64,000 nucleotides of DNA from an uncultured Rickettsiales bacterium (GTDB lineage: Bacteria > Pseudomonadota > Alphaproteobacteria > Rickettsiales > UBA8987): positions 3,141-67,140 of the forward strand of contig CAZPQM010000008.1 of NCBI GenBank assembly GCA_964588995.1, read 5' to 3'. Below the pieces are notes generated by a model. That model was not told the DNA's origin and did no database searches. It saw only the letters and a program-made list of their open reading frames with translations. The stretch's first letter is position 1, and every line of letters starts with the position of its first letter. Both the position numbers and the translations under genes were made by a program. This document shows, in pieces, positions 24,802 through 39,413 of this stretch.

Positions 24802-25557
24802 ATGAGGGGTGGTCTAAACTACAACTATTCCGGGCTTTGTGCCCTTATTGCTGCATGTGCATTTGCGTATTCCATTGAACCTGCAACCGCACAGGTCTGG
24901 ACGGATGATCGTGAAGCGCTCGAAGATGTGGCCAATACCGTATGTGATGCCTACGCTATGGCCGCTGGCGAAAAAGCAGCAACCGCCATTGCAACCGTGG
25001 CAGTTTTTGGATTGGGCGTAGCTGCCATTGCCGGGTTAGTGACAAAAGCACAGGCTGTTATGGTCGCGGCCGCTATTGCCGGAGTTTTTGGAAGTTTTTC
25101 CATTGCACAGGTCATTACGGGGCGCGACCGTAGCTGTGATGAACTTCTGGCATCTTACACTCCACCAGCTTCCCCGCCCGTGACCAATTCACAGACGAAT
25201 CCGATGAATCAATATCCGGGTGGAGGCACTCCTCCACCGTCGCCCTGTAATGAGATTGACCTCGGCAGCTTAACACTAAGCGGTAGTGAAGCGACAATTA
25301 ATTTTACTGTACCAAACGAAGATAATTACAGGCTTGAAGTTACATATTCGATTTCTTCACTCAGTACAGGTGTAGATTTTACGCTGGATTATGCTGGCAA
25401 TACAACAAATAGCCTTTTTTCAGGTTCAGGTTCGCGTACTATAACTTTCCCGGACGATCTTTTATCGGCAGGCAGCTCTTCTTTAGTATTAGAAAAATTT
25501 ATTTTAGCTAATCCTGTACATTTTGATTCGATGGTATTAAGGGGTAGTTCGTGTTAA
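24802..25557 (+). CDS. VirB2/TrbC-like pilin domain fused to a Pro-rich linker and a C-terminal beta-rich domain (tentative)
   Basis: Signal peptide ending ATA-Q. Then EDVANTVCDAY..G.KAATAIATVAVFGLGVAAIAGLV..AVMVAAAIAGVFGSFSIAQVITG gives two TM helices in the T4SS pilin pattern. A PPASPP...GGGTPPPSP linker follows, then a Ser/Thr-rich domain of about 100 aa. Confidence 0.4.
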   Translation: MRGGLNYNYSGLCALIAACAFAYSIEPATAQVWTDDREALEDVANTVCDAYAMAAGEKAATAIATVAVFGLGVAAIAGLVTKAQAVMVAAAIAGVFGSFSIAQVITGRDRSCDELLASYTPPASPPVTNSQTNPMNQYPGGGTPPPSPCNEIDLGSLTLSGSEATINFTVPNEDNYRLEVTYSISSLSTGVDFTLDYAGNTTNSLFSGSGSRTITFPDDLLSAGSSSLVLEKFILANPVHFDSMVLRGSSC

Positions 25558-30213: not shown

Positions 30214-32877
30214 ATGCGGGAATTTACACCCGAAATTATTGAAGAAATCAAAGAAGAGATCAATTTCATTTTCACCTTGCATGAAGCAGTGCGGCTTGAA
30301 GGTGAAATGCGGCTGTTTGCGCCTCCGAGCAAACAGGTATGGCAGTCAGCCGAGGCTGGGTTTGAAGCATGGATTACGCGGGATACGATTGATTCTGCTT
30401 TAGGCAAACTGGTCCTGTTTTACCGCAATGGCAGCACGCCGAATACCACCCTCTTTTTAGACCCGATCCTCTATAAACGAAGCGAGACCGATGGCAGCAT
30501 TACACCCATAGGCTCCGGTTTCACGTTTGCTACTGGATATTGCAAACAGGGTGCGTCCATCGATCCGAATACATTCAAGCGACTAAAAGAAATCGGAGCG
30601 TGGTATGATTTTCTACAGGCGGCTTACCCTGATGGCAGCGAGTCTGAGCAAGCTGGCCTAAAAGTCATCCTTCCGGTCAAAGAGCCAATCCAACCGGCCA
30701 CTCCTCAACATACACCACATGGCAACCCGGCACGCGGTACTCAGGCACTGGCCGATTTTATGGATATCAACAGTGAGGATATCGGAGGGCTTTATTACCC
30801 GCTCGGCGGCCTGATGTACACCCGCGAAGAAGGGCGCTATCAACAACCCAGCTTCAAAAACATTATTCCAACGAAGCAAATTCTTCCACTAAAAGATGTA
30901 GCAACCTATCAGCACTTCGTTAATAAAGTCGAAAATGCCGCCACCTGTTGGAATGCTTATGATCGCAGTCAGGTAATTTATGACCGTTATGGCATCGATG
31001 TGTCCAACCTGGAAGATAATCTTCGCGCCAAAGAAGAATCAGATGCGAAACTTAAAGCGGCCATTAATGAGCTCAAAACCTTGTGGCATTCACATAAACG
31101 GTTTGATCTCAACGGCTACATGCGGCTCTACACCATCCCCGATCAGGCTATCTTCCGAACGAAACAGGAAGGGCTGGAACTCTGGTATGAAGATACGGAG
31201 GAAAGCTACAATAAACTGTTTGAAGAGTTACAATATTATTATAACGCGGGAGTCCTGCCCAACAGCCCGCCTTTAGTCGATCCGATTGTCTACCGAAAGG
31301 AGGGGGATAACTTCATTCCGATTGGCACCAGCGTCACCTGGGCCACGGCCTTTTACACCGGGCAGGCAGTCTATAACGAGCACGATCTCGCCCGTATTAA
31401 GCAAGTCGGATGCATGACGGGGGGCTTTATCCGAGCCGGGGTAACCAGGTCCGGCTTTAAAATTCTGGCCTTCCTTGATACACCCTATCGGTTTTCAGAA
31501 GAAGCACAAACGAAACTCCGAGGGCAACGTGACCAATCGGTACCGCACGGTTTAACCATTCCGGGCTGTGAGGAACTGTTTAATATCTCGAACGTCAACG
31601 GGACGGCCTATGCCCCTTATTATTTACTCACCGGTATTGAATATCTTTGTCAGAACGGCTCATACGCCAGCGAAACCATGGAAGAATCGTTTGATGGAGA
31701 GCAGATCAATCGCGATGAACTGATTCAACGCTACACCGTCTCTCAGGAGTATATCCAGGAAGCAAACCGCTGCTGGAACAAATACGACAAGCTGCACCCG
31801 CTATGGGAGCGTTTTGGGATTGACGGGAAAAACCTCGAGAAAAACCTGAAATATTACATGCTATGCGGACGCGACTTTAATTTACTGAATATGACAGGCG
31901 AATCACGCTCGGATAAGGAGTCGGAATTCGAATTCCTCGTACCCGGCTGGATACCCAAGGCAGCTATCACCATCATCGGCGCTACCGGGGGGACCGGAAA
32001 ATCCTCCCTTGCGCACAGGCTCGCGGTGCTGACGTCAAGCGACTGGACGGAGGATGACCCGAATCCGAAATGGCTTGGCTCGGAAATCGCTAAGGAAGAT
32101 TGTCAGGGTATTTCGGTTTATTTCTCGGGTGAAGATGCCGCTTCCATCGTAAATGCCCGTGCGAAAATTTTTGATCCGGAAGGTAAGTCCTCACGGCTTA
32201 TGCTAAAAACAGGGGCCGAATTTGGCACCCATTCGGATGGCTCACCTAAAGCGATCGGTGATTTTCTGGAGGAGTTGCACGTCCTGCCTAAAGTAGATGT
32301 CGTTGTGATTGACCCGGCACGGAAATACCTGCTCGGAGATGAAGATGACTCGGAGGTGGTGAGCGACTTTTTCGAAGCGATTGAAAAGTTCGCGGTGGAA
32401 AAGAATTGTGGCATGATTGTCGTGCATCACCTGCAAAAGCAGGCGCATCCGCGCGACACGCGTGATATTGCCGATATGCTTCGCGGTTCGCAAGTATTTA
32501 TCGACCGGGCGCGGGTCGTTATCGGGATGATGCGCGATGGTGCCTATACGCTTGCAGGTTTGGCGAAAAACAATATCCCACCTGGGCTGGGTATGGTCGA
32601 GGGAGAGCGTGTGCTGGCGCGGGATCCGGAACGGCTGGACCTCATCTGGTTGCCCGGACCGGAAGGGGTGCGCCATTTTGATGTAACCGAAGAAGAGTTA
32701 AAAGAAATTAAAAACAAGCTGGAAGCGGAACAGGAACAGCATGACAAAAACGCTAAGGCTGATGATGCTTCAGCTACAAGCGAGACAACCTCATCCGCAG
32801 ATAGCACGGATACAGATGTAGAGGCCTCTTCAGATAATGATCAGGATGCGCCAACAAATCTAAGTCAGGCTAACTGA
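30214..32877 (+). CDS. 887-aa protein with two tandem unknown modules of about 275 aa, a RepA/AAA_25-type RecA-like ATPase domain and an acidic Ser/Thr tail
   Basis: Walker A GATGGTGKS (about nt 31981-32007), Walker B-like VDVVVIDP, and VVHHLQK. An internal protein-level repeat pairs DPILYKRSETDGSITPIG with DPIVYRKEGDNFIPIG, and CWNAYDRSQVIYDRYGIDVSNLEDNL with CWNKYDKLHPLWERFGIDGKNLEKNL. Confidence 0.7.
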   Translation: MREFTPEIIEEIKEEINFIFTLHEAVRLEGEMRLFAPPSKQVWQSAEAGFEAWITRDTIDSALGKLVLFYRNGSTPNTTLFLDPILYKRSETDGSITPIGSGFTFATGYCKQGASIDPNTFKRLKEIGAWYDFLQAAYPDGSESEQAGLKVILPVKEPIQPATPQHTPHGNPARGTQALADFMDINSEDIGGLYYPLGGLMYTREEGRYQQPSFKNIIPTKQILPLKDVATYQHFVNKVENAATCWNAYDRSQVIYDRYGIDVSNLEDNLRAKEESDAKLKAAINELKTLWHSHKRFDLNGYMRLYTIPDQAIFRTKQEGLELWYEDTEESYNKLFEELQYYYNAGVLPNSPPLVDPIVYRKEGDNFIPIGTSVTWATAFYTGQAVYNEHDLARIKQVGCMTGGFIRAGVTRSGFKILAFLDTPYRFSEEAQTKLRGQRDQSVPHGLTIPGCEELFNISNVNGTAYAPYYLLTGIEYLCQNGSYASETMEESFDGEQINRDELIQRYTVSQEYIQEANRCWNKYDKLHPLWERFGIDGKNLEKNLKYYMLCGRDFNLLNMTGESRSDKESEFEFLVPGWIPKAAITIIGATGGTGKSSLAHRLAVLTSSDWTEDDPNPKWLGSEIAKEDCQGISVYFSGEDAASIVNARAKIFDPEGKSSRLMLKTGAEFGTHSDGSPKAIGDFLEELHVLPKVDVVVIDPARKYLLGDEDDSEVVSDFFEAIEKFAVEKNCGMIVVHHLQKQAHPRDTRDIADMLRGSQVFIDRARVVIGMMRDGAYTLAGLAKNNIPPGLGMVEGERVLARDPERLDLIWLPGPEGVRHFDVTEEELKEIKNKLEAEQEQHDKNAKADDASATSETTSSADSTDTDVEASSDNDQDAPTNLSQAN

Positions 32878-32881
32878 CACG

Positions 32882-33745
32882 ATGTTCCGTTTTTTCTTCA
32901 GACGCCGTGATCCGGAGGATCGACCCCAAAAAATCTCTTATATTCCCTGGCAGCTGCAACTCGCAGTCATCCTATTTGTCATATACGTCATTTTTCAGGA
33001 TCACAGTCTGCGTGAGCGCGTAACGCCTGATCCGAAGGGGAAAATGGAGCGTCTGATAGAAACCGAACAGCGCGAAGTAAAAGAAGTGATGAATCAGGCC
33101 GCCGAATTAACCGAAGACATGACAGAGCCTGAGATCATACTTAATCAAACTACGATTAAACGCGGTGAAGGAGCTCCGCTCCTTTGCGGAGACAAGCTAA
33201 CGGTTCATCTGACCGCAACCGATGATGCCGGTACCATCGTCATGGACACCACCGCTGCTGATACGCCCAAAACCATTTCGCTTGGAGAGACACTGTTGCA
33301 TGAGCGGCTCACCCCGGTTCTCAGCACGATGCGAATGGGAGAAATACGGCAGGTCTATCTGCAGGAAGAGGGAGAATCGCCACTCACTATCGACCTTGCA
33401 CTCATGATAGTCGAACACCGTTTGCAAGACAAACTACCGTTTGGTGTACATACATATACCTTAACAACCGGAGATGCGGACACGCTACGCTGTGGTGAGT
33501 ACGTTACACTAACAATGCGTTATTTTGCGCCAGATAACCCGAAAGAAGTGCTGCATCAGGACACATTACAGCTCCCACTTCACGCCGAAGCCATGCCGAT
33601 TGCGCTGCTACGATCTTTGCTGGAACACCGCCGCGGTGATACGCTAATCGCCATCCTGCCCGATGTTTTGTTTGAAAATTCACCACTTAACATGGCCGAA
33701 TTCCCCACCTCACCTGCCCACTTCGTTGCGTTGAACGTCGATTAA
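32882..33745 (+). CDS. Membrane-anchored protein with two degenerate FKBP-like domains (tentative)
   Basis: Starts 4 nt after the previous stop. N-terminal basic segment plus a TM helix (LQLAVILFVIYVIF). KRGEGAPLLCGDKLTVHL..DDAGT...LGE....M.MGEIRQVYL echoes the FKBP pattern, and a weaker second copy follows. Confidence 0.45.
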   Translation: MFRFFFRRRDPEDRPQKISYIPWQLQLAVILFVIYVIFQDHSLRERVTPDPKGKMERLIETEQREVKEVMNQAAELTEDMTEPEIILNQTTIKRGEGAPLLCGDKLTVHLTATDDAGTIVMDTTAADTPKTISLGETLLHERLTPVLSTMRMGEIRQVYLQEEGESPLTIDLALMIVEHRLQDKLPFGVHTYTLTTGDADTLRCGEYVTLTMRYFAPDNPKEVLHQDTLQLPLHAEAMPIALLRSLLEHRRGDTLIAILPDVLFENSPLNMAEFPTSPAHFVALNVD

Positions 33746-33879: not shown

Positions 33880-34095
33880 ATGTTCATTTGTATTTGCAAC
33901 GCATTACGCGATAAAGATTTTAAGCGTGCTGCTGATAGCTGCATCGGGGCCGATTGTGCTGAACGTTTATTTGATGAGCTCGGTTGCAAACCGCAATGCG
34001 GTAATTGCCTTTGTGCTGTCGACGAAATGATTGCTCCATCCAGCAAAACGGCGTTACTATCTACTGAATCTAAGGCTGCGCCTGTAACCGCCTAA
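33880..34095 (+). CDS. bfd: Bacterioferritin-associated ferredoxin (Bfd-like 2Fe-2S domain)
   Basis: MFICICNALRDKDF...CKPQCGNCLCAV shows the C.C...C..C pattern of Bfd. Confidence 0.8.
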   Translation: MFICICNALRDKDFKRAADSCIGADCAERLFDELGCKPQCGNCLCAVDEMIAPSSKTALLSTESKAAPVTA

Positions 34096-38660: not shown

Positions 38661-39413
38661 ATGCAAAAAACACGAAGACAACAACGAAAAGATAAACAGA
38701 AAGGTTTTACACTCGTAGAACTCTCGATTGTGCTCGTTATTATCGGCTTAATTGTCGGTGGCGTACTGGTAGGGCAGGATTTGATCGCCGCGGCTCAGAT
38801 TCGCGCGCAGATTTCGCAGCTGAATGAATTTAATGCTGCTGTTAATACGTTCCGCGCACAGTACGACGGTATCCCGGGTGATACGCGCAACCTTTTTGCA
38901 TTAGGCTTAGTTGCTGATACGAATGGAAATGGCAATGGTGATGGGATCATTGATGGCGATCCATCTGCAACAAACACAGAAGCCGCACATTTTTTTGATT
39001 CATTATCTGCTGCAGAGCTTATTGCTGGTCAGTTTGGTGAAACCGAAGGTCCCGAAACAAGTATTGATACCGGGCTTCTGGTTGCTGTTTCTGCCGGTAG
39101 TTTAAATTATTGGATTGTCGGCGGTGGAGTAGGTTCAGGTCCGAATGATATGACCAATGCGGCCGTTGCTGCGGGAAGCGGCATTACCGGTTTTCAGGCA
39201 TGGTCGCTTGACAGCAAAATGGATGATGCCGATCCCGAAACCGGATCAATGCGGCTGGTGGATCCTGGAGCCACTCTTTCCGGTCAAACTGGTCCTGATG
39301 ACTGGCTGGCTTCGCCTGACACGAACTGTGTTGCCGGTGGTGAGTACGTTATTGATACTACAGGAGATGGTACGGTGGGTGATTGCCCGGTCTCTGTCCG
39401 TATACAGGGTTAA
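38661..39413 (+). CDS. Prepilin-type N-terminal cleavage/methylation domain protein (type IV pilin or pseudopilin-like)
   Basis: Leader MQKTRRQQRKDKQKG followed by FTLVELSIVLVIIGLIVGGVL, the class III signal (G/FTLxE). AGGAGG SD. No other pilus or T2SS genes in the window. Confidence 0.8.
   Translation: MQKTRRQQRKDKQKGFTLVELSIVLVIIGLIVGGVLVGQDLIAAAQIRAQISQLNEFNAAVNTFRAQYDGIPGDTRNLFALGLVADTNGNGNGDGIIDGDPSATNTEAAHFFDSLSAAELIAGQFGETEGPETSIDTGLLVAVSAGSLNYWIVGGGVGSGPNDMTNAAVAAGSGITGFQAWSLDSKMDDADPETGSMRLVDPGATLSGQTGPDDWLASPDTNCVAGGEYVIDTTGDGTVGDCPVSVRIQG

Follow-up and report, generated by a model that had tools for sequence, protein, structure and literature searches.

The IncQ plasmid RSF1010 pairs its RepA helicase with RepB', a primase resembling the archaeo-eukaryotic primases (AEPs), and the polymerase domain of LigD is the AEP of bacterial non-homologous end joining. 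Fusion of an AEP to a RepA- or DnaB-type helicase is a documented architecture of mobile-element replicases, and bacterial AEP-helicase fusions have been found in a survey to be almost always of that kind (PMC5862659). The gene under study lies in a 64,000-nucleotide stretch of DNA (hereafter the window) from an uncultured Rickettsiales bacterium (contig CAZPQM010000008.1, positions 3,141 to 67,140 of the forward strand; assembly GCA_964588995.1). It encodes an 887-aa protein in which two N-terminal modules, AEP-like by predicted fold, precede a RepA-type ATPase (helicase) domain, and it is followed by the gene for a 287-aa membrane-anchored protein resembling the FKBP prolyl isomerases. A sequence-only reading of the window had put the two genes forward as an undescribed two-gene system. 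We lean instead, with a little better than even confidence, towards the 887-aa protein being a domesticated primase-helicase, i.e., an AEP-like and RepA-type protein fixed as a single-copy, vertically inherited chromosomal gene, next to which the FKBP gene is an incidental neighbour.

The C-terminal domain ties the protein to RSF1010. Pfam AAA_25 (PF13481) matches aa 572-744 at E=3.9e-18 (66.2 bits against a cutoff of 27), and a profile of 71 family sequences (aa 560-835), searched against the PDB, matched the hexameric helicase RepA of RSF1010 (1g8y/1nlf) over its whole core at E=4.6e-10. Profile positions 20-203 align to RepA residues 27-207, from Walker A through 'HHxxK' to the 'RGS' arginine region, with 'VVVHHLQKGA' paired with 'VFLHHASKGA' of RepA and 'RGSQVFIDR' with 'RGSSVLVDN'; KaiC, RadA and Rad51 were matched only round the P-loop (E>0.01). 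Within Walker A, G592-S598 are invariant in an 8-member alignment and the core residues in one of 71 members; in the Walker B-like motif, V698-I699-D700-P701 are invariant in the smaller alignment and D700 and P701 in the larger; and H738, H739 and K742 of VVHHLQK are invariant or nearly so in both. The alignments thus indicate that the domain retains every ATPase motif of RSF1010 RepA, which in profile comparison is its sole clear relative of solved structure. Among phage protein families, the best PHROG matches are annotated 'DNA primase/helicase' (PHROG 239, E=3e-13), 'DNA primase' and 'DNA polymerase/primase'. The ATPase aligns to positions 351-556 of the 801-position 'DNA primase/helicase' profile, i.e., in the same domain order as in the 887-aa protein, and in the 'DNA primase/helicase' and 'DNA polymerase/primase' families, the ATPase segment starts 350-500 profile positions from the N-terminus. 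The acidic tail beyond the domain is mostly specific to the window genome, the other members of alignment A1 ending 20-50 residues sooner.

The region preceding the ATPase arose by tandem duplication: a ~280-aa module is present twice, and its copies, aa 1-285 and 278-566, are homologous from end to end (26% identity). Nearly every residue invariant in module 2 is preserved in module 1 as well, which indicates that both copies are under selection. No family in Pfam, NCBIfam or the PDB sequences matches the first ~565 residues. Pfam searches of 73 N-modules at E up to 10 returned no AEP family (Prim-Pol, RepB_primase, LigD_N and others) and no other match; PDB profile searches with the N-module were likewise negative; and Pfam recognized no PriCT, Zn-binding or winged-helix domain in the 887-aa protein or the 73 N-modules, among which a single Cys (C520) is invariant. 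With HMMER, the module profile gave 35 matches among 1.84 billion representative proteins, all of them family members or fragments except for one outlier (P0042), whose weak Pfam matches were all sub-threshold and gave no lead. By this measure, the N-module is a lineage-restricted orphan. Two candidate links to viral proteins were discarded: the phage entry MW202475, compared by hhalign, consists of Toprim plus AAA_25 and is not an AEP, and three IMG/VR proteins of 734-755 aa, with N-termini belonging to no family, have no profile similarity to the N-module.

Predicted structure points to the primases. The AlphaFold2 model of module 2 (predicted local distance difference test score [pLDDT] 82.3, predicted TM-score 0.82) was compared with the PDB using Foldseek, and the twelve best matches are all AEPs, namely LigD polymerase domains and CRISPR-associated Prim-Pol (CAPP). 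The best is the Mycobacterium tuberculosis LigD polymerase domain (2r9l, 2iry; E=1.4e-3, probability 0.96), over ~280 aligned columns; slightly lower stand the PrimPol of African swine fever virus, the E5 primase of monkeypox virus, Pseudomonas aeruginosa LigD and Prim-PolC. Against the viral models of BFVD, the top six matches have a probability of 1.00, E-values of 2-6e-4 and TM-scores (TMq) of up to 0.46. The top eight include proteins of 640-800 aa, and those bearing names are a phage 'DNA primase/helicase', an 'AAA domain containing protein' and a 'Primase'; lower down come a 'RepB DNA-primase' (from a phage plasmid), VirE and PriCT-containing proteins. The names given to the multidomain matches are those of primase-helicases, which agrees with the domain order of the 887-aa protein. 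The result is consistent across both fold libraries, with scores that are modest throughout, and the models suggest that the N-module has an AEP-like fold.

The polymerase site itself appears to have been lost. Across 73 members, the invariant or nearly invariant polar residues are E286, H294, N344, N350, R394, R407, K416, N544, R553 and D554, and no invariant Asp or Glu occupies any β-strand as expected for the DxD/E of motif I or the D of motif III; at position 356, 58 members have N and 14 have D, and D occurs at position 422 in only 37 of the 73. A conserved GSGxxW stretch carries W376 in 71 of 73 members, at what we take, by motif rather than by structural alignment, to be the position of the His in AEP motif II (sGxGxH). 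On these conservation patterns, the module would lack the canonical AEP catalytic signature, and we infer that it is a catalytically degenerate AEP-like domain.

How the family is distributed bears on whether it belongs to the host. A scan of one genome per GTDB species gave 81 matches in 80 genomes, one copy each, the sole double match being one gene split over two contigs; every carrier is a metagenome-assembled genome labelled Rickettsiales, Alphaproteobacteria or similar. (Word-indexed homologue searches, which returned 8 and 7 proteins only, give a misleading impression of rarity.) Most members are ~550 aa long and consist of one module plus the ATPase, and nine, including that of the window, are 808-904 aa long with two modules. 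In a neighbour-joining tree built on the region common to all members, the two-module forms make up one clade and therefore go back to a single duplication. Mean pairwise identity is about 64-65% in the ATPase and 43-46% in the module. Outside this lineage, a tblastn search of a plasmid collection found no match; a phage collection gave a single weak one, to a Toprim-AAA_25 protein; and IMG/VR contributed three proteins at 22-26% identity in the ATPase domain only, such that these three collections hold no closer relative. This lack of close plasmid, phage or IMG/VR relatives is what an old host gene passed on vertically would show, and not an active mobile element. Its surroundings in the window are of housekeeping type throughout; no integrase, transposase, phage or other mobile-element gene lies within ~13 kb on either side, and GC content shows no anomaly at the locus. 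A literature search found no description of the family, which is previously undescribed and restricted to an uncultured Rickettsiales-like alphaproteobacterial lineage.

These results bear out much of the sequence-only reading. Translation confirmed both open reading frames (ORFs), the gap between them, all quoted motifs and the acidic tail, and both the RepA/AAA_25-like assignment of the C-terminal domain and the lack of a sequence family for the first ~565 residues stand. So does the description of the neighbourhood as housekeeping and free of mobile genes, but not the accompanying statement that no primase is present, the N-modules being AEP-like by fold. The reading had also named an outcome that would undo its proposal, i.e., that the N-terminal modules belong to a known primase or origin-binding family within a decayed prophage; its first half agrees with the fold-based assignment to the AEP class, and its second half finds no counterpart at the locus. 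Among the several roles it listed, the evidence favours that of a domesticated replication protein.

Gene order across the family suggests what the host might use the protein for. The most frequent neighbour, at about 40 loci, is a divergent ~970-aa gene directly upstream at gaps of 26-124 nt, identified by NCBIfam as the alphaproteobacterial AddB (TIGR02786, 852 bits), and the gene beyond is AddA (TIGR02784, 1121 bits). Since this head-to-head pairing is kept across subclades with different downstream genes, the position next to addB-addA appears to be the ancestral one. Members of the two-module clade have the helicase gene downstream of ppk and ppx instead; these are two genes in loci L011-L013 (related loci are given by L numbers) and a single fused gene in the window and L072.

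Two further observations were made at these loci. In many one-module loci (including L029 9920-10000, L031, L033 and L085), the region between addB and the helicase gene carries a ~30-nt near-palindrome, 'GATATTTTAACCT-N5-AAGGTATAAAT', directly upstream of the addB start codon, which is probably the leader and ribosome-binding region of addB; an operator common to both divergent genes is a less likely alternative. The conserved block 'GATATTTTAACC..GGTATAAAT' of these gaps, considered as a shared regulatory motif, abuts the addB start and is most simply read as the 5' leader and ribosome-binding region of addB itself. At 14 loci of one subclade (e.g. L005/L029 11871-19191), the helicase gene lies convergent to a tandem array of three virB6/TrbL paralogues, beyond which come virB4 and virB3. 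Such an arrangement is typical of the type IV secretion system of rvh type in Rickettsiales, and it supports the taxonomic placement of these genomes.

Set beside the described systems, the 887-aa protein resembles each in part. It shares the RepA core with RSF1010, and RepB' finds an echo in the RepB DNA-primase among the N-module fold matches; however, the primase-like and helicase parts are here fused, with the former duplicated and apparently without catalytic residues, and the gene is chromosomal and vertical, with no RepC-type initiator or oriV nearby and no match among plasmids. In its layout, i.e., an N-terminal AEP fold followed by a RecA-fold ATPase of RepA/DnaB type, it matches the PrimPol-PV1 supergroup (e.g. 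the PrimQH family) and PHROG 239 (PMC5862659), from which it differs in the lack of detectable PriCT, Zn-binding and winged-helix domains and of the DxD, His and D motifs, in its location outside mobile elements, and in having an N-module that is a sequence orphan of one lineage. LigD is linked to it by fold and, in a sense, by context, as double-strand-break processing is the function of LigD and is suggested for the 887-aa family by addAB synteny. Yet the N-module is only 11-14% identical to the LigD polymerase domain at a TM-score of 0.33, the catalytic aspartates appear to be missing, the protein has no ligase or nuclease domain, and no Ku gene lies nearby.

The second gene of the window, on the same strand and 4 nt downstream, has a different history. 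Its product has a basic N-terminal tail and a sole hydrophobic segment, aa 20-38 (Kyte-Doolittle mean 1.96). The AlphaFold2 model, made from a 2-sequence alignment, is of low confidence (pLDDT 54) and was used for fold class alone; with it, Foldseek matched the FK1-FK2 tandem of FKBP52/51 over ~195 columns (E=2e-7) and single FKBP12 domains (TMt 0.75), and the predicted fold is thus one of two tandem FKBP domains. Pfam FKBP_C remains below threshold on the window protein (17.0 bits against 21.1), and the orthologues from L010-L013 pass it at E=3e-28 to 5e-7; the L010 protein, to which the window protein is homologous, has two FKBP stretches (E=3e-28) and matches the FkpA model PRK10902. Compared by eye with what we take to be the FKBP12 consensus (pocket residues Y26, F36, D37, W59, Y82 and F99), the first domain would have lost several of the aromatics: it reads VHL for VHY and MDTT for FDSS, and has L at the W59 position. 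The double FKBP-like character and single membrane anchor proposed earlier are thus upheld, and the pocket may well be degenerate. Relative to FkpA/Mip-type peptidyl-prolyl isomerases (PPIases), the window protein is distinguished by an uncleaved N-terminal transmembrane helix and the lack of a Mip-type dimerization helix. By the positive-inside rule, the FKBP domains would lie in the periplasm and the ATPase in the cytoplasm. Of the partner's parts, aa 1-45 (32882-33016; 705-840 in L088), comprising basic tail and transmembrane helix, are 67% identical to the protein P0045, compared to 30-37% in the FKBP domains, an odd pattern for a plain membrane anchor.

The loci of the window, L088 and L010-L013 are the only ones where a same-strand FKBP gene comes after the helicase gene, at 4-24 nt (4 nt in the window, 6-24 nt elsewhere). 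That position holds no FKBP gene in the two-module loci L072, L008, L009 and L069 or in any of the ~70 one-module loci; what comes next is purU in L072, a porin gene in L008, fpg in L009 and, 161 nt downstream, an unannotated 159-aa ORF in L069. These absences, together with the tree, indicate that the pairing was lost several times. The window and L088 share 88% identity in the C-terminus of the ATPase and 39% in the partner. The idea of an undescribed two-gene system, and the co-conservation across genomes on which it would depend, are thus not borne out, the ATPase gene being kept alone in at least 80 genomes and the FKBP gene accompanying it at six loci. A role in defence, also raised by the sequence-only reading, fared no better: PADLOC found no defence-system match (best, mad8 at E=0.013 for the ATPase; none for the partner), and the neighbours (lon, clpXP, tig, ppk-ppx and topA) form no defence island. 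Most simply, the partner is an operon passenger, a membrane-anchored periplasmic chaperone that is probably degenerating in the window genome.

Several points weigh against a domesticated primase-helicase that works with AddAB and has no need of its neighbour: (i) the link to AddAB is one of synteny, and divergent neighbours can persist by inheritance alone; (ii) that link has been lost in the two-module clade, the window included; (iii) the AEP assignment is a matter of modest fold similarity (TM-scores 0.33-0.46, PDB E about 1e-3), to which (iv) no sequence-profile method (Pfam, PDB profiles, hhalign) adds support; (v) the loss of catalytic residues was read from conservation patterns and not from residue-level superposition; and (vi) both the closeness of the FKBP gene in six genomes (4-24 nt) and the strong conservation of the partner's cytoplasmic tail and transmembrane anchor leave room for real coupling. 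Points (iii) and (iv) would suit N-modules that are not derived from a primase at all, being instead a new ligand- or protein-binding domain with an RRM-like β-α-β core, attached to an ATPase that serves as a KaiC/RadA-like switch or remodeller and not as a helicase. TM-scores below 0.5, the missing sequence-level link to AEPs and the conserved E286, H294, R394, R407, K416 and N544, which are unlike a polymerase site, agree with this. We nonetheless judge it unlikely, as two independent fold libraries both place AEP primases at the top, many with a helicase fused behind them as seen here, and as RepA is the solved structure to which the ATPase core specifically aligns. The opposite extreme is a protein that has taken over a core replisome role, whether as replicative helicase, as primase or as both, or by standing in for DnaB/DnaG or PriA as a self-loading restart primosome. 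Its single copy in each of the 80 genomes where it was detected, its intact helicase motifs and its primase-helicase architecture are what such a role would call for; primase activity is, however, doubtful where AEP catalytic residues are not conserved, and we give this little probability. A regular-expression search for dnaB/dnaG signatures found none in ~1.5 Mb of loci, which is uninformative at ~20 kb sampled per genome.

Point (vi) is the core of the case for a true two-component module, in which the FKBP protein would tether or regulate the ATPase at the inner membrane via its basic tail and transmembrane helix, with envelope-stress sensing, defence or membrane-linked DNA handling as conceivable roles. 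Gene order and strand are the same, with short gaps, in the window, L088 and L010-L013, and the tail and anchor are better conserved between the window protein and P0045 than the domains they carry. Yet the partner is missing from four of the nine two-module genomes as well as from all ~70 one-module loci, it evolves far faster than the ATPase, its FKBP domains are predicted to lie across the membrane from the ATPase, PADLOC has no match, and its orthologues look like ordinary periplasmic FkpA-type PPIases. The module as a whole therefore has, in our estimation, a slim chance of being real, and coupling of helicase and FKBP protein via the conserved cytoplasmic tail a small one. Least probable of all, we hold, is that the gene does not belong to the host but encodes the replication protein of a mobile element, integrated or decayed (plasmid, integrative and conjugative element or phage remnant). 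An AEP-like plus RepA-like architecture is typical of mobile-element replicases (PMC5862659), a tRNA-Leu and an orphan VirB2-like gene lie ~5 kb upstream, and one subclade has the gene directly beside type IV secretion genes (virB6). These features are outweighed by its single-copy presence in 80 species, the synteny kept within subclades and the monophyly of the two-module forms, by the housekeeping genes, absent integrase and unremarkable GC content around it, and by phage, plasmid and IMG/VR relatives that come no nearer than 22-26% identity in a family whose own ATPases share a mean of ~65%.

If the 887-aa protein is indeed a domesticated primase-helicase, it would form a ring helicase, as a hexamer, that moves along single-stranded DNA by ATP hydrolysis, with the degenerate AEP modules binding DNA or the fork, or loading the helicase, and carrying out no polymerization. 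The ancestral addBA neighbourhood and the likeness to the LigD polymerase domain, which binds double-strand breaks, suggest that it may act with AddAB in recombination-dependent repair or replication restart. The FKBP chaperone gene would have entered the operon within the two-module clade, probably without becoming a mechanistic partner of the helicase. The family would thus represent a candidate case of a selfish replicase exapted by alphaproteobacteria that are relatives of intracellular bacteria: a fixed host gene in which the polymerase residues appear to be lost, the helicase motifs are kept, and the primase-like domain has been doubled in one clade. Its ancestral head-to-head position with addBA suggests that it may serve double-strand-break repair or replication restart, which can be tested; it would also add to AEP-like fold space a sequence-orphan domain family detected in one lineage only, and it corrects the idea of the ATPase-FKBP pair as a new two-gene system. 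A bolder version, which we consider decidedly unlikely, is that the lineage recruited a mobile-element primase-helicase into a core DNA transaction, with the degenerate AEP modules serving as structure-specific DNA-recognition or loading domains. Were this so, the protein could be a self-loading helicase that restarts replication at intermediates made by AddAB/RecA, replacing the PriA/DnaB-loading route, or else the replicative helicase itself, and would provide a bacterial counterpart to mitochondria, whose replication machinery derives from phages.

Positions of the genes, domains and motifs within the window are collected below.

Table. Coordinates of features at the locus (positions in the window)
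Feature	Position	Strand	Basis or remark
Fused ppk-ppx gene, 1225 aa	26494..30171	+	PP_kinase domains, Ppx-GppA and Ppx_C (Pfam)
Gene for 887-aa protein (two AEP-like modules, RepA-type ATPase/helicase domain, acidic tail)	30214..32877	+	ORF; family with at least 80 orthologues
N-module 1, aa 1-277 (extra copy, two-module clade only)	30214..31044	+	26% identical to module 2
N-module 2, aa 283-566 (common to all family members; predicted AEP/Prim-Pol-like fold)	31060..31911	+	AlphaFold2 and Foldseek
RepA-type RecA-fold ATPase (helicase) domain, aa 567-830	31912..32703	+	Pfam AAA_25, PDB profile search, PHROG 239
Walker A GATGGTGKS, aa 589-597	31978..32004	+	Invariant core in alignments
Walker B-like VDVVVIDP, aa 694-701	32293..32316	+	Alignments; matches RepA 'LMVLDT'
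VVHHLQK motif, aa 736-742	32419..32439	+	Aligns with 'FLHHASK' of RSF1010 RepA
Acidic Ser/Thr/Asp-rich C-terminal tail, aa 831-887	32704..32874	+	Alignment A1
Gene for 287-aa membrane-anchored tandem FKBP-like protein, operon neighbour	32882..33745	+	ORF, 4-nt gap
Single transmembrane anchor of the FKBP-like protein, aa 20-38 (predicted)	32939..32995	+	Kyte-Doolittle

Upstream of the 887-aa gene lie lon, a formate/nitrite transporter gene, clpX, clpP, tig, tRNA-Leu, a weakly VirB2/TrbC-like ORF, an ArsR-type helix-turn-helix gene, a RatA/Coq10-like gene and ppk-ppx, which ends 42 nt before the 887-aa gene. A terminator scan of this gap found no terminator-like site, and the two genes probably share one transcription unit. 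Downstream of the FKBP gene come a small Cys-rich bfd-like ORF, topA, pssA, psd, a pilin-like gene, a gene for a SAM-dependent methyltransferase (SAM_MT), maf, folE and others.

Some of these neighbours merit mention in their own right. The ppk-ppx fusion unites PPK1, with all four of its domains, and an exopolyphosphatase, i.e., a synthesizing and a degrading enzyme in a single polypeptide; it recurs in L072 (1235 aa), and in L011-L013, the separate ppk and ppx genes abut or overlap. The VirB2-like ORF (251 aa, 24802-25557, + strand) adjoins the tRNA-Leu gene and matches the TrbC/VirB2 pilins, below threshold (E=1.3e-4), in its N-terminal ~100 residues, which are followed by a Pro/Ser-rich linker and a C-terminal extension of ~100 aa; no other type IV secretion gene lies near it in the window, and no homologue occurs in 87 related loci. 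The Cys-rich ORF at 33880-34095 (+ strand; MFICICNALRDKDF...CGNCLC...) has no Pfam match at E up to 1e-5, as searched with a truncated translation, and its CxC...CxxC spacing is presumably that of Bfd-like [2Fe-2S] domains. Finally, a 250-aa protein encoded at 38661-39413 (+ strand) bears an N-terminal prepilin-type methylation motif (N_methyl, E=2.4e-8) and has homologues in 6 related loci.

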